NCBI GenBank assembly: GCA_041082215.1
Contig: JBDOIF010000024.1
Coordinates: forward strand, 1 to 36,958
Source: Anaerolineae bacterium
GTDB taxonomy: Bacteria > Chloroflexota > Anaerolineae > B4-G1 > DUEL01
Direction of reading: 5' to 3'
DNA length: 36,958 nucleotides
The notes under the pieces are model-generated. The model saw only the letters and a list, made by a program, of their open reading frames with translations. It was not told the origin of the DNA and did not search any database. Positions 5,693-26,815 of the stretch are shown here, piece after piece; positions within the stretch are counted from its first letter, which is position 1; each line of letters begins with the position of its first letter. A program made the translations under genes and the position numbers.

Positions 5693-6955
5693 TCATTCCC
5701 CTGTTCGCAGGTACTGGATCGCCCGCTCGAGCTGGGGGTCCTGACCCGGCTCCAGCTCCTCCGGCATTGCCACCTCGATGTCGGGCGTCAGCCCCTTGCC
5801 GTGGATGGCCACGTCGCTGGGGGTGAACCAGCGAGCGATGGTCACCCGCAGCTCCGATCCGTCGGAGAGCCGGTAGGGGCGCTGTACAGACCCCTTGCCG
5901 AAGGTCTGCTCGCCGATCAGCACGCCCCGTCCCCGGGCCTGGATCGCTCCGGCGACGATCTCCGAGGCGGAAGCGCTGCCCTGGTTGACCAGGACAATCA
6001 GGGGGAGGTCCTCCACAGGCCCACCGCTGTGGGAACGGTAGACCTGCTCGGAGCCGTCGGAGGCCCGCTCGATCAGGACAACGCCGTCGTCGAGGAAGAG
6101 ATCGGCCACCTCCACCGCCTGGTCCAGCCATCCGCCGGGGTTATCCCTCAGGTCGAAGATCACCCCCGATGGGTTCTGGGCCAGCAGTTCGTCCAGCGCT
6201 TCCTCCATCTGGGAGGCCGCTGTGGCGCTGAACTCCTGCAATCGGACGTAGGCGATGTCCCCCTCCAGCATCTCCGATTCAACCAGAGGGATCTCGATGC
6301 GGGCACGGACCACCGTCACCTGAAAGGTCCCCTCCTGGCCTGGCCGCTCGATCGTCAGCGTGACCGAGGTCCCCGCAGGCCCCCGGATGAGAGCGATCGC
6401 CTCGTAGATTCCAAAGCCCACGATGGATTGTCCGTCCACTTCCAGAACCCGGTCCCCTCCGTGAAGGCCAACACTCTCCGCAGGCGATCCGGGGATCACG
6501 CTGACGATCTCCAGCTTGCCGTCCTCCGTCATACGGACGAAAGCGCCGATCCCCTCAAAGGTGCCGGAGGCATCTTCGTTCATGATGGCTGCGATGTCTG
6601 GTTCGATGAAGGAAGTGTACTCGTCCCCCAGCGTTTCCAGCATTCCCCGGATAGCGCCGTAGGTGACGGTCTGCATATCCGGCAGCTCGCCATAGTAGTC
6701 CCGCTGCAGGATCTCCCAAACCTCCCAGAAGAGCTGGAAGGTCTCCTCCTCGGGACGGGATGGGGTGGGGGGGGGCAACGAGGGTGGTGTGGAAGGTGTA
6801 GGGGAGAGGAAAGTCGCCGGTTCGGTGGAGGGGGCCAGGCGGGTTGTCACCAACTGCGACGCGGCAAATCCGGCGACAAAAGCCACAACGGCGGCAAAAC
6901 CTACAAGAGACAGGACAAGCAGAATTCGGACCCAACGCCACGATCGTTCTTGCAT
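5693..6955 (-). CDS. S41A family carboxy-terminal processing protease (PDZ plus S41), paralog 1
   Basis: N-terminal anchor, PDZ (FEGIGA), DLRDNPGG, catalytic SASASEI and TFGKGSVQ. Confidence 0.95.
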
Positions 6956-6958
6956 TTC

Positions 6959-8146
6959 TCATTCACCTGATTGGAAGTATTGAACCCCCCGGTCCAGCGG
7001 CGGATCCTGCAAGCCGTCGGCCGGAGGGGTGGGGATGTCGGGGGCAAGGCCCTCGACGCCGACGGGCTGGCGGTTGGGCAGGAGCCAGACGGCGGTGGTG
7101 ACGTGGAGGACGGAGCCGTCGGAGAGGGTGTAGATGAGCTGCACGGACCCCTTGCCGAAGGTCTGCTCGCCGATCAGCACGCCCCGTCCCCGGGCCTGGA
7201 TCGCTCCGGCGACGATCTCGGCTGCGCTGGCGGTGGAGCCGTTGACCAGGACGACCAGGGGCAGCCGGGCGGCGAGGCCGTCTGGCTGCGCCGTGAAGGT
7301 CTGTTCCTCTCCCCCGCGGTGGGCCTCATACAGGACGACGCCGCCGTCCAGGAACAGGTCGGCCACCTGGACCGCAGGCTGGATCAGCCCGCCGCCGTTA
7401 TCCCGCAGGTCCAGCACCAGCCGGGAGATGCCGGCGGCGAGGAGTTCTTCCAGCGCCCGGGTTGCCTCTTCGGGGGTGCGGTCGGTGAAGCCCGTGATGT
7501 GGAGATAACCGATAGTCGGGTCCTGATCCAGCACCCGGTAGGAGACGCTGGGCACCTGGATCTCGGCCCGGGTCACCTGCAGGTCGAACGGCGGGGTGGG
7601 GGGGCGGGAGAGGGTGAGGGTCACGGTTGTACCCACCTCCCCCCGCAGGCGGACGTGGATCCCGTCCAGCGACTCCGTGATGACGGAGGAGCCGTCCACA
7701 GCGAGGAGCACATCTCCTTTCCGGACCCCGGCCTGTTCGGCGGGGGAGCCGGGGTAGGGGGAAAGGACTACCTGTCCTTCCGCGTCGCGCCAGAGGTCAA
7801 CGCCGATGCCCCCATAGGCGCCGGCGAGCCGGTCCCGTTCGATCTCGCCCGGCTGGGGCTCAAGGAAGATGGTGTAGGGGTCGTTCAGCAGGGCCAGGAC
7901 TCCGCGGATGGCCCCGTATGTGCGCTGGCGCGGGGGCGGGAGCTCGCCATAGAAATTTTGTTCTACAATATCCCAGGCCTCCCAGAAAAGCCCCAGCGGG
8001 CGGTTGGTCGGGCGCTGGGCGAGGAGCCGCTGGGTCAGGACGCCGCCGAGGCAGGAGAGGAGGAAGATGGCAAGAAGCAGGAAGGCAGGATAAGGAAAGA
8101 GCCATCTGGGGCGGGTTATTGAATCGTGCATTGGTTTGTCGGTCAT
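6959..8146 (-). CDS. S41A family carboxy-terminal processing protease, paralog 2
   Basis: [32 protein letters not shown]. Start placed at ATG 8146, just downstream of a -10 box; the exact start is uncertain. Confidence 0.93.
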   Translation of the reverse strand: MTDKPMHDSITRPRWLFPYPAFLLLAIFLLSCLGGVLTQRLLAQRPTNRPLGLFWEAWDIVEQNFYGELPPPRQRTYGAIRGVLALLNDPYTIFLEPQPGEIERDRLAGAYGGIGVDLWRDAEGQVVLSPYPGSPAEQAGVRKGDVLLAVDGSSVITESLDGIHVRLRGEVGTTVTLTLSRPPTPPFDLQVTRAEIQVPSVSYRVLDQDPTIGYLHITGFTDRTPEEATRALEELLAAGISRLVLDLRDNGGGLIQPAVQVADLFLDGGVVLYEAHRGGEEQTFTAQPDGLAARLPLVVLVNGSTASAAEIVAGAIQARGRGVLIGEQTFGKGSVQLIYTLSDGSVLHVTTAVWLLPNRQPVGVEGLAPDIPTPPADGLQDPPLDRGVQYFQSGE

Positions 8147-8270: not shown

Positions 8271-8299
8271 TTGACAGAATCGGCGGCGCAGTGTATAAT
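8271..8299 (+). promoter_or_regulatory. Perfect consensus sigma70 promoter of the tyrosine recombinase gene
   Basis: TTGACA (8271-8276), 17 nt, TATAAT (8294-8299). Confidence 0.9.
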
Positions 8300-8324
8300 T
8301 CGTATAGTTTACCTTATACGAATC
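8297..8324. other. Palindromic lox/dif-like recombinase-binding site
   Basis: Perfect 9-bp inverted repeats ATTCGTATA (8298-8306) and TATACGAAT (8315-8323) around the asymmetric 8-bp spacer GTTTACCT, about 70 bp upstream of a tyrosine recombinase gene. Confidence 0.75.
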
Positions 8325-8393
8325 AAACCTACCAGCTCGGGCAGAGGGAAGAGGGGCCTGCCCCACCCCACGCCGGGGCAGTCAGGAGGCAGG

Positions 8394-9437
8394 ATGGAAG
8401 GATCGCAGGAGCAGGAAGGGGAACAGGGGGGCAAGGGGGTCAGAGGAGCCGGCCCCACGGTCGAGGGGGCGGTGAGGGCCTATCTGGAGGAGGTCGCGGC
8501 CAGCCGGAGCCCCCTCACCCACCGGGCCTACGCCCAGGCGGCGGAGCGTTTCCTGCAGGTGCTTCGGAAGCATGGTTTGAGGCCGGAGAGCACGGCCGTC
8601 TCTTCCGTCTCGCCGGAGTGGATGGCCTGGTACATCGAGGCCCTCCACGATTCCGCCGTTGCCACAGAGCGGCTCTTCCTCACCGCCCTGTTCGGATTCT
8701 TCGAATACGTCGCCGCCGAGGGCTGGGCGCCGGTCAACCTGCCGGCCCTCAAGCGGCTCCGCCAGCGCCGCGCCCGTCGGGAACCCACCCGTCTGCCCCC
8801 CTTTCCCCGCCAGGAGATCGAGCGGGTGCTGGAGACGGTCCATCAGGCCGCCGCCGCGCCGGTCGAGGATTTGCAAGAAAAATTGCGAATATTGCGCGAC
8901 CGTGCCCTTCTTTTTGTCCTCGCCGATACCGGCCTGCGGGTTTCCGAGGCCTGTTCCCTCACCCGCGGCCAGCTCGACTGGAACGAGGCGCGGGCGATCG
9001 TGCTGGGCAAGGGGAACCGGGAGGCGGTGGTGCGCTTCTCCGCCCGCTCCCTGCGCCACCTGCGCGCCTATCTGGACGCCCGCGCCGAACTGGACGGCGC
9101 CCAGGGCCGCCCCCTTTCCAGCCTGCCCCTCTTTGCCCGCCACGACCGGGGGGCCGGGAGGCGGGTTCTCCCCCTCTCCCCCCGCTCCGCCGAGAAGATC
9201 GTCGAGGGATGGGTGGTGGCAGCACTGGGGCCGGGGGCGCGGGGGACCATCACCCCCCATACCTTCCGCCACTACTTTGTCACCGTGGTCCTCCGCGGCA
9301 CCGGCGGCAACATCCGCCTGGCCCAGGAGCTGGCCCGCCACCGGTCCATCACCACCACGCAGCGGTACACCCACCTGAGCGATGACGAGCTGGACCGGGG
9401 GTATGAGGAGGTGTTCAATACGGGAAAGAACGGCTAG
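8394..9437 (+). CDS. Tyrosine recombinase/integrase (Xer-like)
   Basis: Complete catalytic set: TGLRVSE (R), GKGNR (K), HTFRH (HxxR), LARH (H), TQRYTH (Y). N-terminal core-binding domain (SPLTHRAY). ATG 8394 after AGGAGG. Confidence 0.95.
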   Translation: MEGSQEQEGEQGGKGVRGAGPTVEGAVRAYLEEVAASRSPLTHRAYAQAAERFLQVLRKHGLRPESTAVSSVSPEWMAWYIEALHDSAVATERLFLTALFGFFEYVAAEGWAPVNLPALKRLRQRRARREPTRLPPFPRQEIERVLETVHQAAAAPVEDLQEKLRILRDRALLFVLADTGLRVSEACSLTRGQLDWNEARAIVLGKGNREAVVRFSARSLRHLRAYLDARAELDGAQGRPLSSLPLFARHDRGAGRRVLPLSPRSAEKIVEGWVVAALGPGARGTITPHTFRHYFVTVVLRGTGGNIRLAQELARHRSITTTQRYTHLSDDELDRGYEEVFNTGKNG

Positions 9438-9506: not shown

Positions 9507-9558
9507 ACCCTCGCCCCACCCCCCCTGGCCGGAAGGTGTTAGGGGGAGAGGTGAGGGT
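9507..9558. repeat. REP-like imperfect hairpin (ACCCTCGCC...GGTGAGGGT)
   Basis: Terminal inverted repeats. Related CCCTCACC elements occur near 30862 and at 35641-35733. Confidence 0.55.
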
Positions 9559-9593
9559 ATAGAAAATAGCAGAACAGAGCTATTGGAGGAGAT

Positions 9594-10031
9594 ATGAGAG
9601 AGACCTCGAAGGCCCCAGAGCGTCCATTGACCGAGGCCGCCCAGGTCCTTTCCAGGATCGCCGAGGAGCTAAGCCGGGTGAGCACCAGGCTGGCCGCCCA
9701 GGCGGAGGACAACAGCCCTGAGGCAGAGCTCCTGGGAGAATCTCAGAAAACGCTGACAGCCCTGTCTGAAAAACTGGGTCAGTGGGAGACCCGGGAAGGG
9801 GATACCGCCGCCAAACAGACAGCTCAACTGCGACACCGCATCCTGCAGGACCTCCTGCGCCGGGGGCCAGCCCTTCCTATCGAACTGGCGGCAGCAACCC
9901 TTTCTCTCCCCGAGGAGATCCAGCCCGTCCTGCAGGACCTGGCCCGGGAAGAGCTGATCGAGATTCGGGAGGTAAGGGGGGGGCATCTGGTCGCCCTCAC
10001 CGTCAGAGGACGGCAGGAAGCCAGCCGGTAG
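9594..10031 (+). CDS. Hypothetical protein: N-terminal coiled coil plus C-terminal winged-HTH-like domain
   Basis: GGAGGAG SD. C-terminus ILQDLLRRGPALPIELAAATLSLPEEIQPVLQDLAREELIEI..VALTVRGR follows the MarR/wHTH pattern. Confidence 0.7.
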   Translation: MRETSKAPERPLTEAAQVLSRIAEELSRVSTRLAAQAEDNSPEAELLGESQKTLTALSEKLGQWETREGDTAAKQTAQLRHRILQDLLRRGPALPIELAAATLSLPEEIQPVLQDLAREELIEIREVRGGHLVALTVRGRQEASR

Positions 10032-10041
10032 GAGAGCCTCT

Positions 10042-10668
10042 ATGGCTGCAATCATCTCCCTGGGGCCTTATTTCCTCGTTCTCCTTCTGGCTGTCGCCTG
10101 GGTCCTGGCCGAGATTGTGCAGACCTTCCACGGCGATGTATCCCGTGCCTTGAAGAGCCGGTGGACTGCCCTCTTTATAGGCCTCAACATAGCCTTTGCC
10201 CTCCTGGCCTACCTCACAGTCCGGCTTCTGGCCCCTGCCTCTACGGACCCCTGGCTCCTGGCTCTGGTCGCCGGTGCCGGCTGGCAGGCCCTCCTTCGTA
10301 CACGCATCAATTTGCTCCAGCCTATGACCTCTGGTGAAGAGGGAGCGGTCTCCCTTTCCCTGGCCGATCTGTACAACCGCTTTCAGCAATTCTGCCGGAG
10401 TCAGATTGACCAGACCCTGGCGGGCGAACGCATCCGTCTCCTCGAACAAGCAACCCGGTTCCCTCCCGACGCCCTGGCCCAGCAGGTGCGCCTGTTCGCC
10501 CACGCTTCTGTCCTCCGTTCCCCCGAGGAGGTGGAGACCTACATGGCGAAACTGCAGGACAAGCCCCTCCAGCAGCAGAGCCTCCTGCTGGCCTCCTACC
10601 TCCTCCGGGAGGGCGGCTATGACCTTTTCCGGGAACGGCTGAGAGTGATGGAAAAGAATGCTCGATAG
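10042..10668 (+). CDS. Hypothetical membrane protein (about 3 N-terminal TM helices plus a soluble helical domain)
   Basis: Hydrophobic segments YFLVLLLAVAWVLA, ALFIGLNIAFALLAYL and WLLALVAGAGW; AGGAG SD; 10-bp gap from the previous gene. Confidence 0.8.
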   Translation: MAAIISLGPYFLVLLLAVAWVLAEIVQTFHGDVSRALKSRWTALFIGLNIAFALLAYLTVRLLAPASTDPWLLALVAGAGWQALLRTRINLLQPMTSGEEGAVSLSLADLYNRFQQFCRSQIDQTLAGERIRLLEQATRFPPDALAQQVRLFAHASVLRSPEEVETYMAKLQDKPLQQQSLLLASYLLREGGYDLFRERLRVMEKNAR

Positions 10669-10692
10669 CCTCCACCCAACTCAGGAGGAAGC

Positions 10693-11949
10693 ATGTCTGC
10701 TACGAGCCTTGAAGAAGCCCTGAACACCTTCCATCCGGCGCCGCTGCGGAGTGAGGAAGAGCTGAATCTATACTACGTTGAGCGGCCCCTAAGCCCGCTG
10801 GACCGGATGGCCATCCAGCTCCGCAGCCGCCAGCGGCTCAAGGTGCTTTTTACCGGCCATCGGATAGCCGGCAAGACAACGGAGTTGAACCGACTGACTG
10901 CCAATCTGGTAGATTCCCATTTTGTAGTACACTTCTCCGTCCTCGATACATTGAACGCCTACGATGTGCACTACGCCGATCTGATGCTGGCCCTGGCCAC
11001 ACGCCTGTTTCAGAGAGCAACAGACGAGAGGCTTTTCCCCAGAGGCGTCGGAGCACTGGTTCAGGAGAAGCTGCTGGAAGATGTGTTGCTGTGGCTGGAG
11101 AAGCGGATTGAAGGGCTGCAGTTTATCCCCTCCCCCACCGAAATGAGCCTGAGCGGCCGCGTGAACTTTCTGGCGGTGCAGATGGAAGCCAAGCTGAGTA
11201 CCGAGGCTGTAACCCGTCAGGCACTGCGGGAGAGGGTCTCCATGCATCTTTCCGAACTGGTCGAAAAGACCAACTATGTCGTTGGCGAGGTCGAGCGTAA
11301 GGCACAACGGCAGGTGCTTTTCATCGTAGAGGATATTGACAAGCTGGACCTGGCCAACGCCCGTGACCTTTTTCTTGAGCATGCGCGCTCCCTCACCGCC
11401 GTCCGTGCTTCCATCATCTACACCTTTCCTGTTGCCCTGCGGTATTCACCAGACTTTCCACACGTTGCCGCTAACTTCGACCGGCACTTCATTCTGCCCA
11501 ACGTCCGCCTCGTTGACCGGAAGGGTAACCCGGATGCCCAGGGGCGTCAAACGCTGGAGCAGGTTTTCTATCGGCGAATAGACAGAAACCTGGTCGAACC
11601 GGAAGCACTGCGCAGACTCATAGAGGCCAGCGGCGGGCTGGTTGGAACGCTGGTGCGGCTGGGAGGATTGGCAGCAGAGCATGCGCTGGTGGATGGGAAG
11701 CAGACCATTGACAGCGAAAGCGCTGAGCATGCCATTGCTGAAATACGGGGCGACCTGCGGGCTTTGCTGCGCAAGGAGGATTATGAGGTCCTTCGGCGCC
11801 GGCTGGCCGGCGAAGAGCTGTTCAACGAAGAAATCGTGCGCGAACTGCTCTACACCGGTTGTCTTCTGGAATACCATAATGATGAACCCTGGACCGGCGT
11901 ACATCCTATTTTGCAGCCTCTGCTGAAAGAGTGGAAAGAGCGACCCTGA
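10693..11949 (+). CDS. P-loop (AAA+/STAND-like) ATPase
   Basis: Walker A GHRIAGKTT, Walker B LFIVEDIDK, ASGG motif, C-terminal LLEY..W.GVHPIL; AGGAGG SD. Confidence 0.9.
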   Translation: MSATSLEEALNTFHPAPLRSEEELNLYYVERPLSPLDRMAIQLRSRQRLKVLFTGHRIAGKTTELNRLTANLVDSHFVVHFSVLDTLNAYDVHYADLMLALATRLFQRATDERLFPRGVGALVQEKLLEDVLLWLEKRIEGLQFIPSPTEMSLSGRVNFLAVQMEAKLSTEAVTRQALRERVSMHLSELVEKTNYVVGEVERKAQRQVLFIVEDIDKLDLANARDLFLEHARSLTAVRASIIYTFPVALRYSPDFPHVAANFDRHFILPNVRLVDRKGNPDAQGRQTLEQVFYRRIDRNLVEPEALRRLIEASGGLVGTLVRLGGLAAEHALVDGKQTIDSESAEHAIAEIRGDLRALLRKEDYEVLRRRLAGEELFNEEIVRELLYTGCLLEYHNDEPWTGVHPILQPLLKEWKERP

Positions 11950-13190
11950 CCCGCCCCACCCTGCCCGGTGGTGTTGATCCGTTGCAGTTAGTGCCGTCGC
12001 GCGAGTTCGATCGGCTGGCCCTGTTGCTCTCTCATTCCGAACAGGGAGCCTGGGTTTTCTGCCTGTATAACACCGCCCCGGTGCGCGATGCGATCGTGGA
12101 GGCGTTGCGCGCCCGACTGGACCCCCTGCCGGTCTATGAGTTCACTCTTTCCCCCCAGCAACCCAACCCTCGCGATTACCTGCGGCATCTTCCGGCCGAT
12201 GCCGCCAGCCGACGGGCGGTTATCTTTTTTTATGACGCCTGGCGGGCTTTCGACAGCGGCTTTTTTGGCTATCTGGATCTGCAACGAGAGCAGTTTATGA
12301 AAGCGCCTCACAGCCTCGTCTTCTGGATCCACGATGCCGACCGGGCCGCTATCGCCCGCCATGCCCCCAACTTCTTCTCCCGCCATGCTGGCGTTTTCGA
12401 CTTTCGGGTGACGATACCCGAGCAGGTGGAAGCCATCCGGGGATTCTGGGTAGCCCAGCCCATCGGGTGGGATAGCGTGGAGGAGAGGGATCGGCAGGAG
12501 CGATTGTATGTGGGGTTGCTGGCCGAGTATGAGGCCGATGAAGAGCCAGATCAGGCAGCCATCGCGGAACTGCTGGGCAAGCTGGCCAATATCTGGTACT
12601 TCAGCGACCGCCTGGAGGAGGCGGGAGGAGCACTGCAACGTAGATTGGAGCTGACGAGAACGCTGGAAGATCGGAGCGGGGAGGCCAATACCCACCTTGC
12701 GCTTGGCCAGCTTGCCATCCGGCGCTACGATCTGGACGGGGCGCTGGAGCGGTACGAGGAGGCGCTGCGGCTGTACCGGGCCGTGGGCGACCGGCTGGGG
12801 GAGGCCAACACGCTGAAGGCCATCGGCGACGTGCTCAACTTCCGCAAGGAGCTGGACGGGGCGCTGGAGCGGTACGAGGAGGCGCTGCGGCTGTACCGGG
12901 CCGTGGGCGACCGGCTGGGGGAGGCCAACACGCTGGGTTCTATGAGCCGCCTGGCACTTCAAAAGGGGGATAACGACCAGGCCCGCGCCCTGCTCCAGCA
13001 GGCGGTGAGCCTCCATACAGCCATCGGTAGCCGATATGATGTCGCCGTTGACCTGGGCAACTTCGGGCTGGTCCTGCGGAATATGGGCCGCATGGAGGAG
13101 GCTCGCCCCTACCTTCTACAGGCAGCAGAGGTTTTCGAAGCTATCGGCCTCACCGAGAGGGCGGAAAAACACCGCCAGGCTGCAGGATAG
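11931..13190 (+). CDS. Tetratricopeptide-repeat protein with an N-terminal alpha/beta (possibly degenerate NTPase-like) domain
   Basis: 40-aa TPR units (ALERYEEALRLYRAVGDRLGEANTL). N-terminal LDLQREQF..LVFW..HAPNFFS..VFDF. Overlaps the ATPase 3' end by 19 bp. Confidence 0.88.
   Translation: MERATLTRPTLPGGVDPLQLVPSREFDRLALLLSHSEQGAWVFCLYNTAPVRDAIVEALRARLDPLPVYEFTLSPQQPNPRDYLRHLPADAASRRAVIFFYDAWRAFDSGFFGYLDLQREQFMKAPHSLVFWIHDADRAAIARHAPNFFSRHAGVFDFRVTIPEQVEAIRGFWVAQPIGWDSVEERDRQERLYVGLLAEYEADEEPDQAAIAELLGKLANIWYFSDRLEEAGGALQRRLELTRTLEDRSGEANTHLALGQLAIRRYDLDGALERYEEALRLYRAVGDRLGEANTLKAIGDVLNFRKELDGALERYEEALRLYRAVGDRLGEANTLGSMSRLALQKGDNDQARALLQQAVSLHTAIGSRYDVAVDLGNFGLVLRNMGRMEEARPYLLQAAEVFEAIGLTERAEKHRQAAG
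12732..12935 (+). repeat. Intragenic 120-bp-period duplication (84 bp identical) encoding TPR units
   Basis: 12732-12815 is identical to 12852-12935. Confidence 0.95.
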
Positions 13191-13297
13191 AGCCTGCCCC
13201 CCCACTCATCACGGAATACGAAATACGCAATACGCACAGGCTGCAGGATAGAGCCTGCCCCCCCACTCATCACGGAATACGAAATACGCAATACGCA
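13176..13297. repeat. Perfect 61-bp tandem duplication containing AATACG(A/C) heptamers
   Basis: 13176-13236 is identical to 13237-13297 and includes the last codons and stop of the TPR gene. Confidence 0.95.
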
Positions 13298-13304
13298 ACC
13301 CGCC

Positions 13305-14324
13305 TCACCTCTCCCTCCCCACCAGCTCCAGCGCCAGTTCGCGCAGGCCGTCGGCGGCAGGTCCCCGGAGGGCAGCAGCCCCCAGCGCCGCCAGCGCCCG
13401 GTCGGTCAGCTCCCGCGCCTGCCCCTGCGCCCACGCCTGGCTCCCCGCCTCCTCCAGCAACGCCACCGCCCGGCCCACGTCCTCCGGCGAAAGCCCCCCC
13501 TGAGCCAGCAACGCCCGGAGCGGCCCGCTCCGCTGGAGGCCGTGGAGGATGGGGAGCGTCTTCTTCCGGCGAAGCAGGTCGCTCCCCACCGGCTTCCCCG
13601 TCACCTCCGGGTCCCCCCAGATGCCCAGCAGGTCGTCCTGGACCTGAAAGGCCAGCCCCAGGTTATGCCCGAAATCCCGCAGCCGCTCCCGCTGCCCCGG
13701 CGGGCTACCCGCCACCAGCGCCCCCAGTTCGCAGGCGGCAGCCAGCAGCGCGGCGGTCTTCCCCTCCACCATCCGCAGGTACGCCCCGGTGGAAACCTGC
13801 TCTCGGGCCTCGAAAGAAAGGTCCAGGAACTGCCCCTCCGTCAGCCGGAGGCAGGCCTGGCTGAAAACCCTCAGGGCGGCAACGACCGTCCCTTCCGGCA
13901 CCCCCCGATCGCTCAGCCGGAGGAGGGCGATGTGGGAAAGGGCGTAGAGGGCGTCTCCGGCGTTGAGGGCCTGGGAGACCCCCCACAGCGCCCACAGGGT
14001 CGGGCGGCCCCGGCGGGTCCGGTCGTTGTCCTCGATATCGTCGTGGATGAGGGAGAAGTTGTGGAGCAGCTCGACGGCGGCGGCGGCGGGCAGCGCCTGC
14101 TCCCATTCCCCGCCGCATGCCTCGCAGCTCAGCAGACAGAAGACAGGCCGTAACCGCTTGCCCGCCCGACCGCCGGTGGGCCGGAGCTGCTCGTCGGCCC
14201 AGCCCAGGTGGTAGTGGAGGTAACCGTAGAGGGGGCGCAGTTCGGGGTCGGATGCAGCGACCACCGCCTGCATCTCCGCTTCCAGAGCGGGGAGGTAACG
14301 GTTGAAGAAGGGTTGGAGGGTCAT
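13305..14324 (-). CDS. Polyprenyl diphosphate synthase (GGPP/FPP synthase family)
   Basis: [45 protein letters not shown]. Confidence 0.95.
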
Positions 14325-15412
14325 GGTGGCTCGTTACTGGTTGCTGGTTGCTGGTTGCTGGTTGCTGGTTGCTCGTGGCGGATCAGGGGGGTGCGGGAGA
14401 GGGCGGCCAGGTCGCGGGCGCCGGCGGCGAACATGGCCACGCGGAGCTGGGCGATGATGACGGCGATGGCCCGGACAGCCGCCCCGGCCGATTCGGCGGC
14501 GGCCAGAAGCAGAGGCCGGGCAATGCCGCAGGCCGTCGCGCCGAGGGCGATGGCCTTCGCCACCTGGATACCGTCCCGCACCCCTCCGCTGGCGATCAGC
14601 GGCAGGTCGGGGACGGCCTCCCGGACCTGCCGGACCGCCTCAGCGGTGGGGATGCCCCAATCCCGAAAGGCGGCAGCCACTGCCCGCTGGTGGCTATCCT
14701 GCGCCCGGTGCATCTCCACCTGACTCCAGGAGGTCCCCCCCGCCCCCGCCACATCGAGCGCCGCCACGCCGGCGTCGGCCAGCCGGCGGGCCACCCCGGC
14801 GGAAAGCCCCCACCCCACCTCCTTGACCACCACCGGCACCTCCAGCGCCCGGCAGACCCCCTCGATCTTCCGCAGCAGGTCGGAGAAATCGGTCTGCCCC
14901 TCCGGTTGCAGCGCCTCCTGAAGGGGGTTGAGGTGGAGGATGAGGCCGTCGGCCTCCACCATCTCCACCGCCCGCCGGCAGTGGTCGGGGGTATAGCCAT
15001 AGTTGAGCTGCACCGCCCCCAGATTGGCCAGAAGCAGGATGTCGGGCGCCACGTCCCGCACCTGATAGGAAGGGATCAAAGAGGGATCCTCCAGCGCCGC
15101 CCGCTGCGACCCCAACCCCATCCCGATCCCCATCTCCTGTGCGGCCTGAGCCAGCCGGCGGTTGAGGACCCCCGCCTCGGCGGTGCCGCCCGTCATCGGG
15201 GAGATCAGGAGCGGGGCGGAAAGCCGCCTGCCCAGAAGCCGCACCGATGGGTCCACCGACCGGAGGTCAAACTCCGGCAGGGCGCAATGGGGAAGCCGGT
15301 ACTGCTCGAAGCCGGTGGTGAGCCTGTCGAACGAGACGTCCTCTTCCAGGGTGATACGGATGTGGTCCGCTTTCCGTTGCCGGTGCACATCCCCCTCGCA
15401 ACTTCCACCCAC
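14321..15412 (-). CDS. fni: Type 2 isopentenyl-diphosphate delta-isomerase (FMN-dependent)
   Basis: [49 protein letters not shown]. Start uncertain (GTG 15412 or 15388). Confidence 0.95.
14326..14374 (-). repeat. Heptamer tandem repeat (CAGCAAC)n in the 3' end of fni
   Basis: Seven GTTGCTG-like units on the plus strand, encoding the tail [16 protein letters not shown]. Confidence 0.9.
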
Positions 15413-15434
15413 AGGCGGTGTTGTGTATAGTAGC

Positions 15435-15463
15435 ATCATACCAGCGGGGAGGGGGTTTGTCAA
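15435..15463 (-). promoter_or_regulatory. Promoter of the fni operon
   Basis: Minus strand TTGACA, 17 nt, TATGAT. Confidence 0.75.
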
Positions 15464-15480
15464 ACACCGCGCCTCACCGC

Positions 15481-15508
15481 TTGACAATTCCTCCCCGGCA
15501 GATACAAT
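15481..15508 (+). promoter_or_regulatory. Promoter of acpP (divergent from fni)
   Basis: TTGACA, 16 nt, TACAAT. Confidence 0.7.
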
Positions 15509-15540
15509 ACGTCTCGTTCCAAATCCCCAGGAGGTGAAAG

Positions 15541-15777
15541 ATGTTTGAGCGCGTAAAGGAGATCATCGTCGAGCTGCTCGGAGTGGAGCCGGAGAAGGTC
15601 ACGATGGATGCCCGCTTCCGGGAGGACCTGGGGGCGGACTCCCTCGACCTGGTCGAGCTGGTGATGGCCTTCGAGGAGGAGTTCGGCGGGACCATCTCCG
15701 ATGAGGAAGCCCAGCAGATCAAAACGGTGGGCGACGCCGTCCGCTACATCGAAACGCGGATGACGGTCGGCAGATAG
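15541..15777 (+). CDS. acpP: Acyl carrier protein
   Basis: [21 protein letters not shown] phosphopantetheine motif; AGGAGGT SD. Confidence 0.98.
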
Positions 15778-15803
15778 GGCGCGGTCGGTCGCAGGGTCAA
15801 TCC

Positions 15804-15843
15804 GGGTCACCGACTTCCCTCTTGCAGGTCGGTGGCCTTTTTT
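15804..15843 (+). terminator. Rho-independent terminator after acpP
   Basis: GGTCACCGACT/GGTCGGTGGCC stem followed by T6. Confidence 0.8.
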
Positions 15844-15912
15844 GTGGCTCAGCCGGGCAGCCTGTACGGACTGCTCGGAGAATCAGATCAACTTCTAATG
15901 AGGAGGTTTCCG

Positions 15913-16638
15913 GTGAAAAGGCTCACTCTCTTGCTGACTATTCTTCTGGTGCTCCTGGCGGCCTGTGCGCAGGCCACCCCGTCTGCACCGACCCAGCCAC
16001 CTGCCCCGACGGCGACGCCTCGCCCAACGGACACGCCAGCCCCAACCCCTTCTCCAACCTCTTCGCCGACCCCGACGGGACCGATGGTCCTGACCAGCAG
16101 CGCCTTTGCTAACGAGGGGGACATCCCTCTGCGCTACGGGCAGCGGGAGTTCCGGGTTGCTGTTATGGTAGGAGGGGAAGAGCGGACTTTTGCCTGCTTC
16201 AACCCGCCGGAGAGCGAAAACATCTCCCCCGATCTTGCCTGGACGAACGTCCCGGCCGGAGCCCAAAGTCTGGCGCTGATCATGGTGGACGATCTCCACT
16301 TTGCCTGGTCAGACATACCTGCTGGCACATTCTTCATCCACTGGCTTGTCTATAACATCCCGCCAGCGGTGGCAGGACTGCCGGAAGGGATCCCCGGCGA
16401 CTCCCTTACTCTGGCCGATGGCTCCATGCAGGGCAGGAACGACTATCCGGAACCCTATGACCTTGGTTACGGGGGACCCTGTCCGCCGCCGGAGAGACAT
16501 CTCTACATCTTCACGCTGTACGCTCTGGACACTGTTCTTGACCTGTCACCCGGCGTTGATTACTATACGCTCATGGGTGCGATGGAGGGGCACATCCTGG
16601 CGCAGGCCGAACTGAAGGGCTATTTCAGCGGGGAATAA
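15913..16638 (+). CDS. YbhB/YbcL (PEBP/RKIP-like) family lipoprotein
   Basis: GTG after AGGAGG; lipobox LAAC; Pro/Thr linker; SPDLAW, FIHWLVYNIP, GYGGPCPP..H.YIFTLYALD. Confidence 0.9.
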   Translation: MKRLTLLLTILLVLLAACAQATPSAPTQPPAPTATPRPTDTPAPTPSPTSSPTPTGPMVLTSSAFANEGDIPLRYGQREFRVAVMVGGEERTFACFNPPESENISPDLAWTNVPAGAQSLALIMVDDLHFAWSDIPAGTFFIHWLVYNIPPAVAGLPEGIPGDSLTLADGSMQGRNDYPEPYDLGYGGPCPPPERHLYIFTLYALDTVLDLSPGVDYYTLMGAMEGHILAQAELKGYFSGE

Positions 16639-16677
16639 ACGACCCTGCAGATGCTAAGGGAGGTAGGGAGGGAGGAT

Positions 16678-18012
16678 ATGCCGGAAGAACAGCACCAGCA
16701 TGGGGAGGCCGGAATCGTCCGGGAGGAGGTTGAGCGGATCATCCGCACGGCGCGGATGCTGGGGGTGGAGGTGGACGAGACCGACGTGGCCCAGTGGCTG
16801 ACGGCGATGGCGGCCGTGCAGGCAGGCGGAGGGTGGGCCGTTGACGAGGAGGCCGGGGTCTATGGCCACCGGGTCACGCTGCTGGACTTTGATCGGGAGA
16901 CGCTGGAGCGGTACCGGCGCATCGCCGACATCGTCCAGCTCCCCGACCGGCCCAACGTGGAGACGGCGGTCAGCCTGGCCGGCAGCGCCGCCCAGGGCCG
17001 CATCCAGAAGTACCCCGGCGACTGCGATTACTTCGAACGGGTCAATATTAAAGCCCCCACCCGCGAGGAGGCCTGCCGCGTCCTCGGCGACCTGATGCGG
17101 GAGAAAGCGCTGGCCTTCTTCAAGGGGCCGAACTATGAACTGATCGAGGTCAAGTTCGGCACCTGGAAGGCCGACGTGGTGAAGGGGGGGCGGCGTATCA
17201 GCGCCGGCTCCCCTATCTCCTGGGAGCCGGAGGAGGTGAAAGCCGGCCGGATGGAGGTGCTCCGGGCGGACGGGGAGCCGTGGACGGTGAAGTGGGAGTA
17301 CGGCTGTCTCGATCCCGGCTGGTGCAAGATGGACTGGGTGATCGCCGAGCCGGAACTCGGCCGGGTGGTCAACGCCAGCAATATGCTGGATGTGACCTGG
17401 GAGACGCCGGAGGGGGAGATCATCCCCCTCGATGGCTTTCTGGACCCCTACTTCCAGGAGGTCTACCTGGAGGCGGAATCGGTGCCGCTGTTTGCCAAGC
17501 TGGCGCAGCGCATCTCCCCCCAGGCGCTGGAGGAGTATGTGCGTCAGTTGACGGCCGAGGTGCGTAAATATACGCGTCAACATGCCAACTACGGCAAGGC
17601 AGCCAAGCGACTCTACAACATTTTCCGCCTCACCGGCAGGCACGAGGCGGCCGCGCTGATCCGGGAGATGTTCGACGAGCCGGCCGCGCTGCTCTACCAG
17701 GTCTGGTCGCTCCTGGATACCATTGAAGACGCGTCCCGCCCGGACTCGTCGCTGGACCGGCAGACAGTGGTTCGGCAGATGGACGAGCTGATCCGGGACG
17801 TGGTCGCCTGCTGTGATGGGCCGCAGGAGACGGAGATGGTGATGACCCTCCTCCGCCTGCGGGACGATTTGACGGGGTGGGACTCGCTGGACGAGGGAAG
17901 GGGAGAGGCGATCGCCGCATCCCGGGCCAGGGTGGAGGAAATGGTCAACGAGTACTTCCGGGAGAAGCTGGTGGCGATACCGGAGGTGGCCGAGTTCCTG
18001 AACGGGCTGTAG
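16678..18012 (+). CDS. Hypothetical protein with a Pol-beta-superfamily nucleotidyltransferase motif
   Basis: ATG 16678 after [20 protein letters not shown] fits hG[G/S]x9-13DhD; helical C-terminal half. Confidence 0.7.
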   Translation: MPEEQHQHGEAGIVREEVERIIRTARMLGVEVDETDVAQWLTAMAAVQAGGGWAVDEEAGVYGHRVTLLDFDRETLERYRRIADIVQLPDRPNVETAVSLAGSAAQGRIQKYPGDCDYFERVNIKAPTREEACRVLGDLMREKALAFFKGPNYELIEVKFGTWKADVVKGGRRISAGSPISWEPEEVKAGRMEVLRADGEPWTVKWEYGCLDPGWCKMDWVIAEPELGRVVNASNMLDVTWETPEGEIIPLDGFLDPYFQEVYLEAESVPLFAKLAQRISPQALEEYVRQLTAEVRKYTRQHANYGKAAKRLYNIFRLTGRHEAAALIREMFDEPAALLYQVWSLLDTIEDASRPDSSLDRQTVVRQMDELIRDVVACCDGPQETEMVMTLLRLRDDLTGWDSLDEGRGEAIAASRARVEEMVNEYFREKLVAIPEVAEFLNGL

Positions 18013-18081
18013 GGAGACACAGGGACGCGGGGGCGCGGAGACACGGGGACACGTCTCCGCGATCTCCGTGTCTCTGTGTCT
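18013..18081. repeat. Octamer repeats (GGAGACAC/GGGGACAC) followed by inverted copies, between convergent genes
   Basis: ggagacac agggacgc gggggcgc ggagacac ggggacac, then gtctccgc..ctccgtgtctctgtgtct; can fold back and may act as a terminator. Confidence 0.7.
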
Positions 18082-18712
18082 ATTTTTTCTTTGGCAAAAA
18101 TGCGCCGACGAGGGCCAGCGCGCATCCCAGCCCGCAGGCTACCACCCCCCACCCCACCCCGACCGGCGCGCCGTACAGCTCGGCGAAGAGGGGGCGCACC
18201 CCGACCAGGGCCGCGATCCCTCCCGTCAGCCCTCCCACCGCCAGCGCCGCGGCCAGCCCGTCCAGCAGGCGGGTCGGGAGGCGGCGGGCCAGAGGGGAGA
18301 GGAGCGCCAGGAGAAAGGCCCCGGCCGCCAGCAGAAGCTGCCCCCGATACTCGGGGTCCCGATGGGCAGTGAGGATGGCCGGGTAGGGCGGGAGCGCGAG
18401 CAACGCGACCAGCGCCGCGGCAGCGGGACAGAGCCAGCGGACGGCGCGGGCAGGCCGACCGCAAAAGGCCGGCGCCAGCGCCAGCAGCAGCGCAGAGGTC
18501 AGCAGCGGCAGCAGAAACCCCTCCCGGAACAGAGGAACCGCACCGGCACGGACCTCCGGGAAGAATTTGGAGACCTCGAAGAGGTCGAACCCTCCGACCG
18601 TCAGGCCGGCCGCCCGGTGGGGGATCCACGGGGCCACGGCCCCCACCCCTCCCAGCATCGCCCCCACCGCCAGCAGGGCCGAAGCCATACTTCTGGACTT
18701 TTTCCCCTGCAC
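18080..18712 (-). CDS. Hypothetical integral membrane protein
   Basis: About 6 hydrophobic helices; GGAGG SD; upstream TTGCGA-N16-TATAAT (18776-18749). Confidence 0.75.
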   Translation of the reverse strand: MQGKKSRSMASALLAVGAMLGGVGAVAPWIPHRAAGLTVGGFDLFEVSKFFPEVRAGAVPLFREGFLLPLLTSALLLALAPAFCGRPARAVRWLCPAAAALVALLALPPYPAILTAHRDPEYRGQLLLAAGAFLLALLSPLARRLPTRLLDGLAAALAVGGLTGGIAALVGVRPLFAELYGAPVGVGWGVVACGLGCALALVGAFLPKKK

Positions 18713-18804
18713 TCTTTCCTCCAGCCCGAGAAGCTGGAACGCACCGTGATTATACCGGAAGACAGTGCAATCGCAAACGCCTGCCGGGACGGGTTACTCC
18801 TCTA

Positions 18805-18831
18805 TTGACAAAGCGCTATTTATGGTATAAT
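18805..18831 (+). promoter_or_regulatory. Putative promoter of the extracellular nuclease gene
   Basis: TTGACA, 15 nt, TATAAT, with an extended -10 (TGnTATAAT); the spacer is short. Confidence 0.6.
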
Positions 18832-18902
18832 AGAAAATATAAAGCAGTCCCTATCCAGGCGGGGAAAAGGGGACTCATCAACGCGGAAGAAAGGAGGGCA
18901 AC

Positions 18903-21900
18903 ATGGCAGCCAGGACTGCAGGCTTTTCAATTGTTTCTGCACTTTTGATCGTACTCCTCACCGTCGTCCCCTCACAGGCTGTGCCGATCCCCCCACCACC
19001 GCCCCCGCTGATCAACGAGTTCGTCTTTAACCACGTCGGGACCGATACCCACGAGTTCGTCGAGCTGTTCGGCGCTCCCAGCACCGACTACTCCAGCTTT
19101 GCCATCCTCCAGGTCGAGGGGGACGACAGCGGCGCCGGGACGGTGGATACCGTCTTCTCTGTGAGCAGCACCGACGCTGGCGGCTTCTGGACAACCGGCT
19201 TCCTCAACAATGTCCTGGAGAACGGCACCGTGACGCTCCTGCTGGTGGAAGGCTTCACCGGCAGCACGGGGATGGACCTGGATGCGGATAACGACGGCGT
19301 ACTCGACCTTGCCCCCTGGGCGCGCATTGTGGACGACGTGGCCGTCACCGACGGCGGGAGCAACGACCGCACCTACTCCGCCGTGACGCTTGGCCCCGGC
19401 TTCGACGGAGTTTCCTATACCCCCGGCGGCGCATCCCGCATCCCCAACGGCTCCGACACCGACACGATAGCCGACTGGATGCGCAACGACTTCGACGGGG
19501 CCGGCCTGCCCGGATTCACCGGCACCCCCGAGACCGGCGAGGCGCTGAACACCCCCGGCGCGGCCAACGCCGGGGCAACCCCGCCAGGCCCGGAGGAGGT
19601 CCCCATCCACGATATCCAGTACACCGACGACCCCTCAGGCGCTTCCCCCTATGAGGGCCAGACCGTCACCACCTGGGGCATCGTCACCGCCATCTTTTTC
19701 GACGGCAGCGTCCACATCTTCATCCAGGACGGGGCCGGGCCATGGAGCGGCCTCTTCCTCTACGAGCCGGTCAGGTACGTGCCGGATAGAGTCCTGCACC
19801 CGGGGGATCGGGTGGAGGTGACCGGCCAGGTGAGCGAGTACTACGGCCTGACGGAGATCGCCGGGGGTGAGGTGACGGTCCTCTCCAGCGGCAACCCGCT
19901 GCCCGACCCCGTCGTTCTCCCTACAGGCGGGGTGGCCCAGGAGCAGTGGGAGTCCGTCCTGGTCCGTGTGGAGGGCGTCCTGGTGACGGACCCGGACCTG
20001 GGTTACGGTGAGTGGCTGGTGGACGACGGCTCCGGCGGGGTGCGGGTGGACGATATGGGCGATTACACGTACATCCCCGGCGCAGGTGACCGCCTGGACT
20101 TTGTCCAGGGGCCGCTCTACTACTCCTATGGCGACTTCAAGATCGAACCCCGCAGCAACGACGACATCGGCGTCGCCCCACCGCTGGTCTCCATCTGCCA
20201 GATCCAGGGCAGCGGCTTTGCCTCCCCTTACGTCGGCCAGACCGTCCGCACCCAGGGGCTGGTCTTTGCCGACCTCGACCAGACCGGCAAGCGGGGCTTC
20301 TTCATCCAGGCCCCCAACTGCGATGGCGACCCCACCACCTCCGACGGCATCTTTGTCTACAAAGGGAACCGGACGAACGTGGTGAGGACGGGTGACCTGG
20401 TGGAGGTGCGGGGCGTGGTGCAGGAGTATTACGATCTCACCGAGATCAGCACCCGCCTGAGCGACATCACCATCCTTTCCAGCGGCAACCTCCTCCCCGA
20501 GCCGCTGGATCTCAACCCACCGTTCGACAATGCCAGCGCGCGCGCCTATCTGGAGTCACTGGAGGGGATGTACGTCCGGATGGACGACGCCCTGGTGGTC
20601 GGCCCTACCAGCTACTATGATGAGACCTGGGTGGTGCGGAGCGACCTGGGGCTGAAGCGGGTCTTCCAGGACGACCCGGCCGGCACCGGCGAGGTCGTCG
20701 GCGTGGACGACGAGGGCCTTTTTGAGATCACCCCCGAGGCGAAGGTGGGCGATCGGGTGCTGGGGCTGGTCGGCGCGCTGGATTACACCTTCGGCGCCTA
20801 CAAGATGCAGCTTCTGGCTGCGCCTTCCCTCCTCCCCGCCCCTGATCCGCCCAGGAGGGGGGATGTGGACGGAGACGGCGACCTGGACCTGGACGACCTG
20901 CGGATCATCCACAGCTATCTGGGGAAGAAGGTCCCCCCCGCGCCCGAGCGCGCTGACCTGAACGGAGACGGGCGGATCACCGGCCTGGACATCGTCATCT
21001 TCCTCCGGCTGTGGCGACAGACGCTCCTTGCACCGACGGAGTTCAGCGTCGCCACCTTCAACCTGGAGAACCTCTTCGATACAGTGGATGATCCGGATAG
21101 GGACGATCCGGTGCTCTCTGCCGACGAATACGAGCTGAAACTGGATAAGCTGGCCGAGGCGATCCACGACGAGCTGGGGGAGCCGACGCTCATCGGCGTG
21201 CAGGAGGCGGAAAACCTGGCGGTGCTTGCCGACCTGGCGGCCCGCCCCGAGATCGAGGCCGAGTACAGTGCTGTGCTGGTGGACGGCCCCGACAGCCGCG
21301 GCATTGACGTGGGGCTGCTCTACCGCACCGACCGGGCCACCGTCCTAGGCTATGAGGCCCGGCAGGGCTGCACCACCCTGGTGGATGGCCTCGGGCCGGA
21401 CGGGAACGGGAACCCCCAGAATCCGGTCAACGAGATCACCTGTGATAGCGATGGAGACGGCGTACTGGATGGAAACCGGCTCTTCTCCCGTCCGCCGCTG
21501 GTGGTGCATCTGAAGGTCCGCAGTGGCTATCGGCACTGGGGTCACGGTCGGGAGCAGGAGCTGTGGCTCATCGTCAACCACTTTAAGTCGAAGAGCGAGG
21601 ATACCCCCGACGTCCAGTACACCCTGCCCCGGCGGATCGAGCAGGCCCGGTTCGTGGCCGGGCTGGTCGAGGAGATCCTGGACGCCGACCCGCAGGCCGA
21701 TGTGATCGTGCTGGGCGACCTGAACGATTACCCGGACTCCGAACCGCTGGCGGTCCTTGCCAGCGCCGGCCTGAGCGACCTGCTTCTGGAAGTGGACAGA
21801 CCGGAGCGGTATACGTACATCCACCAGGGGGTGTCGGGGGTGCTGGACCACGTGCTGATCAGTCGCGACCTGAAGTGGGAGTTCCAGAGCGCGGCTCCGG

Positions 21901-22007
21901 TGCACATCAACGCCGACTACCCCAGCGCCTGTGAGGACCTTGCCGATACGGCCCGTCGCAGCTCCGACCACGATCCGGTGGTCGTCCGTTTCCGGATGGG
22001 CCACTGA
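18903..22007 (+). CDS. Secreted ExeM/NucH-like endonuclease (lamin-tail-like domain, OB folds, dockerin-like insert, EEP catalytic domain)
   Basis: Signal peptide; LINEF..EFVEL; IHDIQ and ICQIQG OB repeats; ATFNLENLFD, GVQEAEN, VNHFKSK, GDLND, LDHVL, SDHDPV. Confidence 0.92.
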   Translation: MAARTAGFSIVSALLIVLLTVVPSQAVPIPPPPPPLINEFVFNHVGTDTHEFVELFGAPSTDYSSFAILQVEGDDSGAGTVDTVFSVSSTDAGGFWTTGFLNNVLENGTVTLLLVEGFTGSTGMDLDADNDGVLDLAPWARIVDDVAVTDGGSNDRTYSAVTLGPGFDGVSYTPGGASRIPNGSDTDTIADWMRNDFDGAGLPGFTGTPETGEALNTPGAANAGATPPGPEEVPIHDIQYTDDPSGASPYEGQTVTTWGIVTAIFFDGSVHIFIQDGAGPWSGLFLYEPVRYVPDRVLHPGDRVEVTGQVSEYYGLTEIAGGEVTVLSSGNPLPDPVVLPTGGVAQEQWESVLVRVEGVLVTDPDLGYGEWLVDDGSGGVRVDDMGDYTYIPGAGDRLDFVQGPLYYSYGDFKIEPRSNDDIGVAPPLVSICQIQGSGFASPYVGQTVRTQGLVFADLDQTGKRGFFIQAPNCDGDPTTSDGIFVYKGNRTNVVRTGDLVEVRGVVQEYYDLTEISTRLSDITILSSGNLLPEPLDLNPPFDNASARAYLESLEGMYVRMDDALVVGPTSYYDETWVVRSDLGLKRVFQDDPAGTGEVVGVDDEGLFEITPEAKVGDRVLGLVGALDYTFGAYKMQLLAAPSLLPAPDPPRRGDVDGDGDLDLDDLRIIHSYLGKKVPPAPERADLNGDGRITGLDIVIFLRLWRQTLLAPTEFSVATFNLENLFDTVDDPDRDDPVLSADEYELKLDKLAEAIHDELGEPTLIGVQEAENLAVLADLAARPEIEAEYSAVLVDGPDSRGIDVGLLYRTDRATVLGYEARQGCTTLVDGLGPDGNGNPQNPVNEITCDSDGDGVLDGNRLFSRPPLVVHLKVRSGYRHWGHGREQELWLIVNHFKSKSEDTPDVQYTLPRRIEQARFVAGLVEEILDADPQADVIVLGDLNDYPDSEPLAVLASAGLSDLLLEVDRPERYTYIHQGVSGVLDHVLISRDLKWEFQSAAPVHINADYPSACEDLADTARRSSDHDPVVVRFRMGH

Positions 22008-22029
22008 TGCCCCTGGCATAGCAGCAACA

Positions 22030-22069
22030 GGAGGGGGCCTGCCATCCCTGGACAGGGCCCCCTCTCTTT
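22030..22069 (+). terminator. Probable terminator hairpin after the nuclease gene
   Basis: GAGGGGGCCTG...CAGGGCCCCCTC followed by TCTTTG. Confidence 0.6.
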
Positions 22070-22101
22070 GTTGTATTTCTGCGTTCCTGCGTCTCAGTGT
22101 C

Positions 22102-22911: not shown

Positions 22912-22919
22912 CGGATTGG

Positions 22920-22948
22920 ATTGTAACATCCGCTTCGGGAATGCGCAA
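22920..22948 (-). promoter_or_regulatory. Putative promoter of the lipoate ligase gene
   Basis: Minus strand TTGCGC, 17 nt, TACAAT. Confidence 0.55.
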
Positions 22949-23084
22949 GATACAGCGAACAGGAGGGATCCCTGCCCTATTCGCGGCATTCGCTTCCATT
23001 CGCGCCATTCGTGTTTCCCCAGGTCCGGCCCGGGCCATGGACATCTCGCCCCCAGACTGAGATACTCCTACTCGGCTGAGCCTG

Positions 23085-23112
23085 TTGACTTCGCCCCGCA
23101 TCGGGTTATAAT
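23085..23112 (+). promoter_or_regulatory. Putative promoter upstream of the 151-aa ORF and radical SAM gene
   Basis: TTGACT, 16 nt, TATAAT. Confidence 0.65.
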
Positions 23113-23121
23113 AAGGATACT

Positions 23122-23577: not shown

Positions 23578-23648
23578 CCCTGCTCTTCCTGTCCAGTTTC
23601 CGCATATAGAACTGCGGATAGATGCTTTATTGCAAAGGAGGGAAAAAC

Positions 23649-25247: not shown

Positions 25248-25251
25248 CCGT

Positions 25252-26386: not shown

Positions 26387-26427
26387 TTTGTCTCCTTACG
26401 CTGTTTCTCTGTATTCTCCGTGGTTCC

Positions 26428-26799: not shown

Positions 26800-26815
26800 A
26801 GAGCTTGTTGCTGGT

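Follow-up and report, generated by a model that had tools for sequence, protein, structure and literature searches.

A dif-like inverted repeat and its adjacent tyrosine recombinase as a probable single-enzyme chromosome dimer-resolution module in Anaerolineae

Analysis of a 36,958-nt stretch of DNA from an Anaerolineae bacterium (GenBank assembly GCA_041082215.1, contig JBDOIF010000024.1, positions 1 to 36,958; referred to here as the window) indicated that a 32-bp inverted-repeat element at positions 8295–8326 most likely is a dif-like chromosome dimer-resolution site, served by a dedicated tyrosine recombinase encoded 70 bp downstream. An earlier note on this DNA had taken the element for the cognate site of the recombinase and possibly part of a single-Xer dimer-resolution module. 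This was supported by the conserved arms and variable centre of the site, its single copy per genome, its position at the switch in GC skew, and its overlap with a promoter. By analogy with Xer systems, one recombinase monomer would bind each of the two near-identical arms; in a chromosome dimer, two copies of the site would synapse at the closing septum, and strand exchange across the asymmetric 6-bp centre would yield two monomers. The FtsK DNA pump would be steered to the site by the word GGGTGGGG, converging on it from both sides. The site also spans about −12 to +20 relative to the start predicted for promoter P1, so that the recombinase, once bound, would be expected to repress its own gene.

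The letters at 8294–8327, read directly, were those given in the earlier note. Two 9-bp stretches, ATTCGTATA (8298–8306) and TATACGAAT (8315–8323), are perfect complements of each other and lie 8 nt apart; the letters and an inverted-repeat search both confirmed the proposed 34-bp arrangement, and in the search the repeat grew to 14-nt arms with 86% complementarity. With up to three mismatches allowed, the repeat pattern gave a single match in the window and no match in 100 dinucleotide-preserving shuffles, and the 8+8 core, with up to two mismatches, occurred at a single place in the whole 3.53-Mb source assembly (96% complete). Between the end of the right 9-bp arm and the ATG of the recombinase gene there are exactly 70 nt. 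As in Xer/dif sites, two inverted arms of about 11 bp surround a centre of 6–8 bp. The consensus of 24 family sites was ATGATTCGGATAG-TTTAAC-TTATCCGAATCAT, in which the arm columns were close to 2 bits, arm position 5 excepted, and the six central columns were the least conserved, never palindromic, and flanked by an invariant G and T. This pattern favours a 6-bp exchange region over the 8-bp spacer proposed earlier: with six variable bases between the invariant G and T, the orthologous sites are described better by a 13-6-13 than by a 13-8-13 parse (Table 1). At the innermost arm base, 22 of the 24 sites had G in the left arm and A in the right arm (lower-strand reading).

The earlier note had also aligned the element with loxP, counting matches at 23 of 34 positions and 21 of the central 24; the arithmetic was correct when recounted by hand from the two strings quoted there, and the matches included both 8-bp inner arms. 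This likeness would suit a Cre/loxP-type system of phage or plasmid origin, the probability of which we place close to nil. Cre was missing from the 12 solved structures that the recombinase matched at E ≤ 0.001, the best of which were XerA and XerD. In addition, the loxP-like T at arm position 5 is a minority state in the left arm (6/24 family sites; the matching A in the right arm, 8/24), and the variable centre measures 6 bp. The likeness is superficial, reflecting one genus's variant of arm position 5.

The named relatives retrieved with the protein belong to the Chloroflexota, class Anaerolineae, and carry the labels Thermoflexales, Thermoflexus or Thermoflexia. Orthologs with 69–79% identity were found in 22 of 24 same-family genomes (the misses being G002 and G011). 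Of 25 family genomes, 23 had the pattern TTCGNATAG-N6-TTATNCGAA, with at most one mismatch, at exactly one place each; in the two sister families of the order it was found in 3/48 and 0/47 genomes. In one of the two family genomes missing the pattern, G018, the contig stops 38 bp before the gene match; the other, G011, is 89% complete and had no ortholog match. Of 24 loci, the window included, 23 have the recombinase match at a distance of 34–786 bp from the site; at the remaining locus (G002) the contig stops 20 bp past the site. A more distant relative represented by a single contig of 4,403,799 bp (G221) likewise carries one copy, at 2,387,036, with an ortholog (50% identity) at 2,387,125. 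The site is therefore present once per chromosome in the source assembly, in those 23 family genomes and in G221, and it is kept directly upstream of the recombinase as a module, the arrangement given for XerS/difSL in passages of PMC1914069. Conservation upstream of orthologs and the genome copy count, the checks suggested in the earlier note, both went its way: the arms were kept, the centre varied, and each genome had one site.

The position of the site was compared with GC skew, another check that had been suggested. In G221, the cumulative G−C maximum over a contiguous 417 kb fell at 2,386,059, 1 kb from the site, and the mean skew changed from +0.036 on the left side of the site to −0.030 on its right side. 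Five contigs have a recognised site flanked on each side by 20 kb or more; in four of them (G221, G010, G321 and G190; 43 bp to 1 kb apart) the switch was located at the site, and in G029 it was not (Table 1). Left-minus-right skew was positive in 7 of 8 family contigs, the shorter of which were noisy, and in the window the skew was +0.074 on the left side of the site and −0.015 on its right side. In the four contigs with a switch at the site, the site very probably lies at the replication terminus; for the window contig this location is supported by a flip of polar words at the site. A sequence titled 'chromosome' (CP070639.1, G121) was dropped as a terminus test for its many 100-N runs, its incoherent skew and the lack of a DnaA match over the cut-off; it behaves as a joined scaffold with contigs in arbitrary order.

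By eye, most family sites were seen to have a C-rich motif 35–60 nt to their right. An unbiased scan for 8-mers, covering 370 kb in eight family contigs with each side read toward the site, returned GGGTGGGG with 99 copies pointing toward the site and 8 away; the 9-mer GGGGTGGGG was found 57 times toward and twice away in the same contigs. Control words were balanced (GGGCAGGG 30/20, GGGAAGGG 22/20, GGGGAGGG 37/22), and overall GC skew in the toward-site orientation was merely +0.025. The polarity of GGGTGGGG flipped at the site in all eight contigs (toward/away counts of 36/1 on the left side and 63/7 on the right side), and in five of the eight an exact copy stood at +51 to +63. In the window, 16 copies pointed toward the site (3 from its left side, 13 from its right) and none away, with the switch falling in the interval 7,594–8,361. 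The density of the word was one per 2.3 kb near the site vs. one per 4.0 kb genome-wide. In G221 the count was 20/4, again with the flip at the site, and in G321 other G-rich words were polar (GGGGAGGG 14/1). Two genes with the FtsK gamma domain are present besides the converging words. In Escherichia coli, FtsK finds dif by convergent polar words, as stated in sections of Kono et al. (2011; PMC3025954), and by this analogy GGGTGGGG probably steers FtsK to the site. Two further words in G221 (G221:C1:2200001-2617000), GTCGGTGT (73 toward, 3 away) and TCGGTGTC (47 toward, 1 away), are parts of one longer repeated word, with a polarity toward the site equal to that of the G-rich word.

The recombinase had PF00589 as its only Pfam match (88.7 bits), and the Pfam scan returned no match to an arm-binding N-terminal domain. 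The complete catalytic set R-K-H-R-H/W-Y is present, with R182, K206, H289, R292, H316 and Y325 invariant in 28 orthologs. Its placement was based on scores against family models and solved structures. It fell below the cut-off of every curated model considered, namely XerC (TIGR02224; 139.2 bits vs. 335.15), XerD (TIGR02225; 123 vs. 329.6), XerA (NF040815; 117.1 vs. 220) and XerS (NF003462; 66.3 vs. 267), and no XerH family was among its NCBIfam matches. Judged by these models, the protein is not XerC, XerD, XerA or XerS. The solved structures closest by sequence were XerA (5hxy, 67.9 bits; 4a8e, 56.7 bits) and XerD, and the match to the XerH structure 5jjv (27.5 bits, E = 1.8e-5) was weaker than either.

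Homologs with 41–57% identity were found at 33 loci, of which 14 have an 11-6-11 palindrome within 400 bp upstream. The arms of these palindromes are unlike those of the family and altered alike on both sides, as in GCTTTCGATAA-GTATTA-TTATCGAAAGC and ACTTCGCAAAA-N6-TTTTGCGAAGT; such change in concert is what one protein binding both arms would predict. In the sister-family genomes G031, G033 and G035, whose homologs are 38–40% identical by protein comparison and 33–35% by tblastn, no site with up to three mismatches was present in about 3 kb of flank on each side, and G031 has one weak site candidate downstream of its homolog. A symmetric relative of the site, TTCGCATAA-N6-TTATNCGAA, was also observed in sister-family genomes without canonical Xer genes (L051; L052, L053). 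In G029, the 36% homolog is followed at about 560 bp by a copy on its downstream side (L051, G029:C7:22547-22570), and G086 has two copies (L052, L053), with no homolog in the approximately 3.6 kb of flank that was fetched. One 49% homolog (G380) had neither a recognisable site nor a switch in skew at its gene, and was set aside because it may be a paralog or belong to another arrangement.

The distribution of canonical Xer genes bears on the number of enzymes involved. The canonical type (E ≤ 1e-50) was found in 44/47 and 31/48 sister-family genomes, often two per genome, and in only 4 of 25 family genomes besides the source genome. The sister-family genera without it (g15, g17 and g19; 0/16) are those holding the recombinase homologs of 36–40% identity, and in G221 and G321 no match to the XerD model exceeded 156 bits. 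This complementary pattern is the signature of XerCD displacement by the new module and means that the adjacent recombinase presumably works alone in most of the family. The source assembly itself has four PF00589 matches: the window gene, a canonical type on contig C100, one with a stop codon and one that is weak. Exactly two of these are intact, well-scoring Xer-like genes (C148 and C100), and the C100 protein reaches 291 bits against the XerD model, passing the PRK00283 cut-off. These genes, together with the G/A difference between the innermost arm bases, would accord with a two-recombinase dif in the source genome, to which the adjacent Xer-like protein and the C100 XerD-like protein would bind one arm each, as XerC and XerD do. 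We regard this as improbable since 21 of the 25 other family genomes, with the same site, yielded no gene of the canonical type, some of them being 100%, 97% and 96% complete. Moreover, the arms are near-perfect inverted repeats that change in concert between clades, and the sites of the five genomes with a canonical gene are no more asymmetric than the rest. A canonical dif with a XerD-type arm was also sought in the source genome; the two poor matches obtained, one in a promoter-like stretch and one in apparently coding sequence, were rejected as not credible.

The overlap of site and promoter claimed in the earlier note proved real: P1, the sole promoter-like match within 7000–11000, matches sigma-70 at 12/12 positions and overlaps the left arm. 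In 14 of the 24 family genomes, the site was immediately preceded by a promoter matching at least 11 of 12 positions, and the register of its −10 box relative to the site differed among orthologs (three registers: +1, −4 and −8). In G321, the −10 box lies within the inner left arm, and in G221 the site abuts the −35 box from the upstream side. P1 was absent from six of the 24 family genomes (G015, G016, G017, G023, G024 and G071), where the site was intact and a second promoter was present about 50 nt downstream of it; in some of these, extra genes separate site and recombinase, at a distance of 385–725 bp. Site and promoter repeatedly overlap or touch, without one fixed geometry, and occlusion of the promoter by a protein bound for another purpose fits this better than a classical operator. 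Placement of difSL in or after the promoter, with autoregulation of xerS, was offered as a speculation of the authors in the relevant passage of Le Bourgeois et al. (2007; PMC1914069).

A purely regulatory element, either an operator or an mRNA 5′ hairpin controlling the recombinase gene without recombination, would explain why the site overlaps a consensus promoter, why this overlap recurs in other clades and other registers, and, as a gene-specific operator, why there is a single copy per genome. This explanation is nevertheless very improbable. The site is intact in the six P1-less genomes and lies upstream of the −35 box in G221, hence is not transcribed from that promoter, which argues that it functions as DNA. 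The two arms vary independently of each other at arm position 5, which is unpaired in 7 of 24 family sites; this speaks against selection for an RNA helix, and an Rfam scan of 8100–8500 at permissive thresholds gave only three chance-level matches (E ≥ 4). An RNA hairpin was rejected on the strength of the promoter-less sites and the unpaired position. A regulatory role would also give no reason for the position of the site at the skew maximum or at the convergence of the polar words.

Other features were noticed by eye around the site in relatives. At L005, L007, L008 and L017 (G022, G024, G023 and G017; one genus), an extra coding sequence lies between site and recombinase; it resembles a toxin-antitoxin nuclease gene and has a second promoter, located downstream of the site, as its driver. 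In several relatives (L003, L009, L016, L025 and L034), the site is flanked by short units of 7–9 nt repeated in tandem, for example ACGAATAC-like or TTTACG-like ones.

The surroundings of the gene bear on whether the element could instead be the attachment site of an integrated mobile element, with the adjacent gene as its integrase, the alternative left open in the earlier note. Integrases often adjoin their attachment sites, the DNA past the gene differs between strains (contig C30 diverges before the stop codon), and contigs of relatives often break within a few kilobases. Against this, there is one site per genome and no second flanking copy, the gene is vertically conserved across the family and beyond, and PF00589 stands alone, with no match to an arm-binding N-terminal domain. 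The neighbours in the window are chromosomal housekeeping genes (SmpB, two S41 peptidases, polyprenyl synthetase, lipoate ligase, histidine kinase and ammonium transporter), with no phage or plasmid functions among them. Vertical conservation, housekeeping neighbours and a single site leave this alternative with scarcely any probability. The S41 (C-terminal processing) peptidases immediately left of the site are paralogs with PDZ domains (5693–6955 and 6959–8209, minus strand), adjoined by SmpB. Right of the recombinase, four co-directional genes at 9594–13190 have a lower G+C content (58–60%) and encode a 145-aa protein, a 208-aa protein, a 418-aa protein without a Pfam match and a 419-aa TPR protein, the TPR part alone being matched by PADLOC. 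The 1.5-kb contig C30 of G000 (L060:1-400) repeats the 3′ end of the recombinase gene (protein 96% identical, compared with window 9290–9460) but parts from the window sequence some 17 nt short of the latter's stop codon, continuing with another promoter and a variant of the downstream gene; strain heterogeneity, or variability that sets in where the gene ends, appears to be the cause.

Table 1. Coordinates of the features of the module in the window, and of cumulative G−C maxima and sites in contigs of relatives.
Feature	Position	Strand	Remarks
−35 hexamer of P1, TTGACA	8271..8276	+	12/12 sigma-70 match, 17-nt spacer
−10 hexamer of P1, TATAAT	8294..8299	+	overlaps outer left arm
Left arm, ATAATTCGTATAG	8295..8307	+	core 11 nt = 8297–8307; columns near 2 bits over 24 family sites except arm position 5
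Centre, TTTACC, asymmetric	8308..8313	+	six least conserved columns, bordered by invariant G and T; putative strand-exchange region
Right arm, TTATACGAATCAA	8314..8326	+	core 11 nt = 8314–8324
First polar G-rich word (GGGGTGGGG on minus strand)	8361..8369	-	points at site, 62 nt to its right; is the C-rich motif
Shine-Dalgarno-like AGGAGG	8384..8389	+	read from letters
Xer-like tyrosine recombinase gene, 347 aa	8394..9437	+	ATG 8394, stop 9435–9437; PF00589
Three GGGTGGGG words	6763..7601	+	starts 6763, 7027, 7594; pointing right, toward site
Twelve more GGGTGGGG words	9514..36026	-	starts 9514, 11954, 14808, 17055, 18147, 18152, 18641, 30876, 35030, 35437, 35648, 36019; pointing left, toward site
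G010 (77.7 kb), window's family	maximum 54,501; site 54,432		69 bp apart
G321, other clade	maximum 164,155; site 164,198		43 bp apart
G190, genus of G221	maximum 160,287; site 160,072		215 bp apart
G029, sister family	maximum 9,289; site 22,547		13 kb apart; site downstream of 36% homolog

Several observations weigh against a terminus-located dimer-resolution site served by one enzyme. With regard to skew, the maximum in G029 is 13 kb from the site, and the cumulative maximum of the 37-kb window falls at 18,048, not at 8,299. No skew switch was seen at the site in the short family contigs of G015, G012 and G016 or in the short G354 contig, and the G380 homolog is not at a switch. In G221, dnaA (3.07 Mb) is at neither skew switch and only 0.68 Mb away from the site, and the origin-type switch is coarsely bracketed at 0.2–1.1 Mb (20-kb samples). 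Genome-wide, just 68% of GGGTGGGG copies are on the majority strand of their contig. At 19 of the 33 distant homolog loci, there was no recognisable site within 400 bp upstream, and the source genome has retained the canonical gene on C100. Finally, binding, recombination, control by FtsK and autoregulation are all inferred, by analogy with characterised systems.

Single-recombinase dimer-resolution systems are known from few lineages (XerS, XerH, XerA and XerL). Each such system is informative on how one protein does the job of XerC and XerD and on its control by FtsK, and the module described here would add an example from the Chloroflexota with many natural variants of enzyme and site. The location of the site inside the gene's own promoter would make the xerS autoregulation idea directly testable, the word GGGTGGGG would be a candidate FtsK-guiding word for a phylum without a described one, and the site could serve as a practical marker of the replication terminus in fragmented Anaerolineae genome bins. 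A literature search, with most subscription journals outside its coverage, returned no description of this Chloroflexota system. No word beginning with 'Chloroflex' occurred in a review (PMC5357621) or in a classification (PMC8138268), and in the part of Kono et al. (2011; PMC3025954) concerned, Chloroflexi are covered by three Dehalococcoides genomes only. The family has a cultured relative, Thermoflexus hugenholtzii (PMC8129789). The module is very probably a compact, one-enzyme form of dimer resolution, as yet undescribed for these heat-loving Chloroflexota. A broader proposition, which we consider rather unlikely, is that XerCD gave way in Anaerolineae to a series of natural, self-contained cassettes of recombinase and site. 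In each, the promoter of the cassette would contain the palindromic site, and the arms would have co-evolved with the recombinase (types TTCGGATAG, TTTCGATAA, TTCGCAAAA and ATTCGATATAA). If this were true and the enzymes needed no host factors, the cassettes would offer mutually orthogonal, heat-stable tools of the Cre/lox kind; GGGTGGGG abutting the right arm only, together with the invariant G/A difference between the arms, could then reveal how a one-protein system fixes the side of FtsK activation.

Compared with known systems, the recombinase scores highest against the family models of XerC (139 bits) and XerD (123 bits), although far below their equivalog cut-offs of 335 and 330. The site shares with the E. 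coli XerC/XerD-dif system, as portrayed in sections of Kono et al. (2011; PMC3025954), two arms, a 6-bp centre, one copy at the terminus and converging polar words. Unlike in that system, the arms are alike rather than distinct, and the source genome has no XerD-type arm besides two poor matches. Archaeal XerA/dif also relies on a single recombinase, and XerA is the nearest solved structure by sequence; the protein nevertheless reaches 117 bits vs. the cut-off of 220 (NF040815), and the host is a bacterium with FtsK gamma-domain genes. Dimer resolution by a single recombinase without XerCD is likewise described for XerH/difH of the epsilon-proteobacteria (PMC5241119) and XerL/dif of the Legionellales (PMC9765430), but the similarity of the recombinase to the solved XerH is weak (27.5 bits). 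With XerS/difSL of streptococci and lactococci, as presented in parts of PMC1914069, the module has in common one dedicated recombinase, a site directly before its gene, a single module at the GC-skew shift and an apparent replacement of canonical XerCD in the lineage. The two differ in phylum and in the protein, which is not XerS (66 bits vs. the cut-off of 267, NF003462). The source genome here retains one canonical Xer gene, and whereas difSL, in the same parts of that paper, is an atypical 31-bp site with imperfect repeats, the present site is a nearly perfect palindrome of about 13-6-13. In layout and logic, the module matches XerS/difSL.

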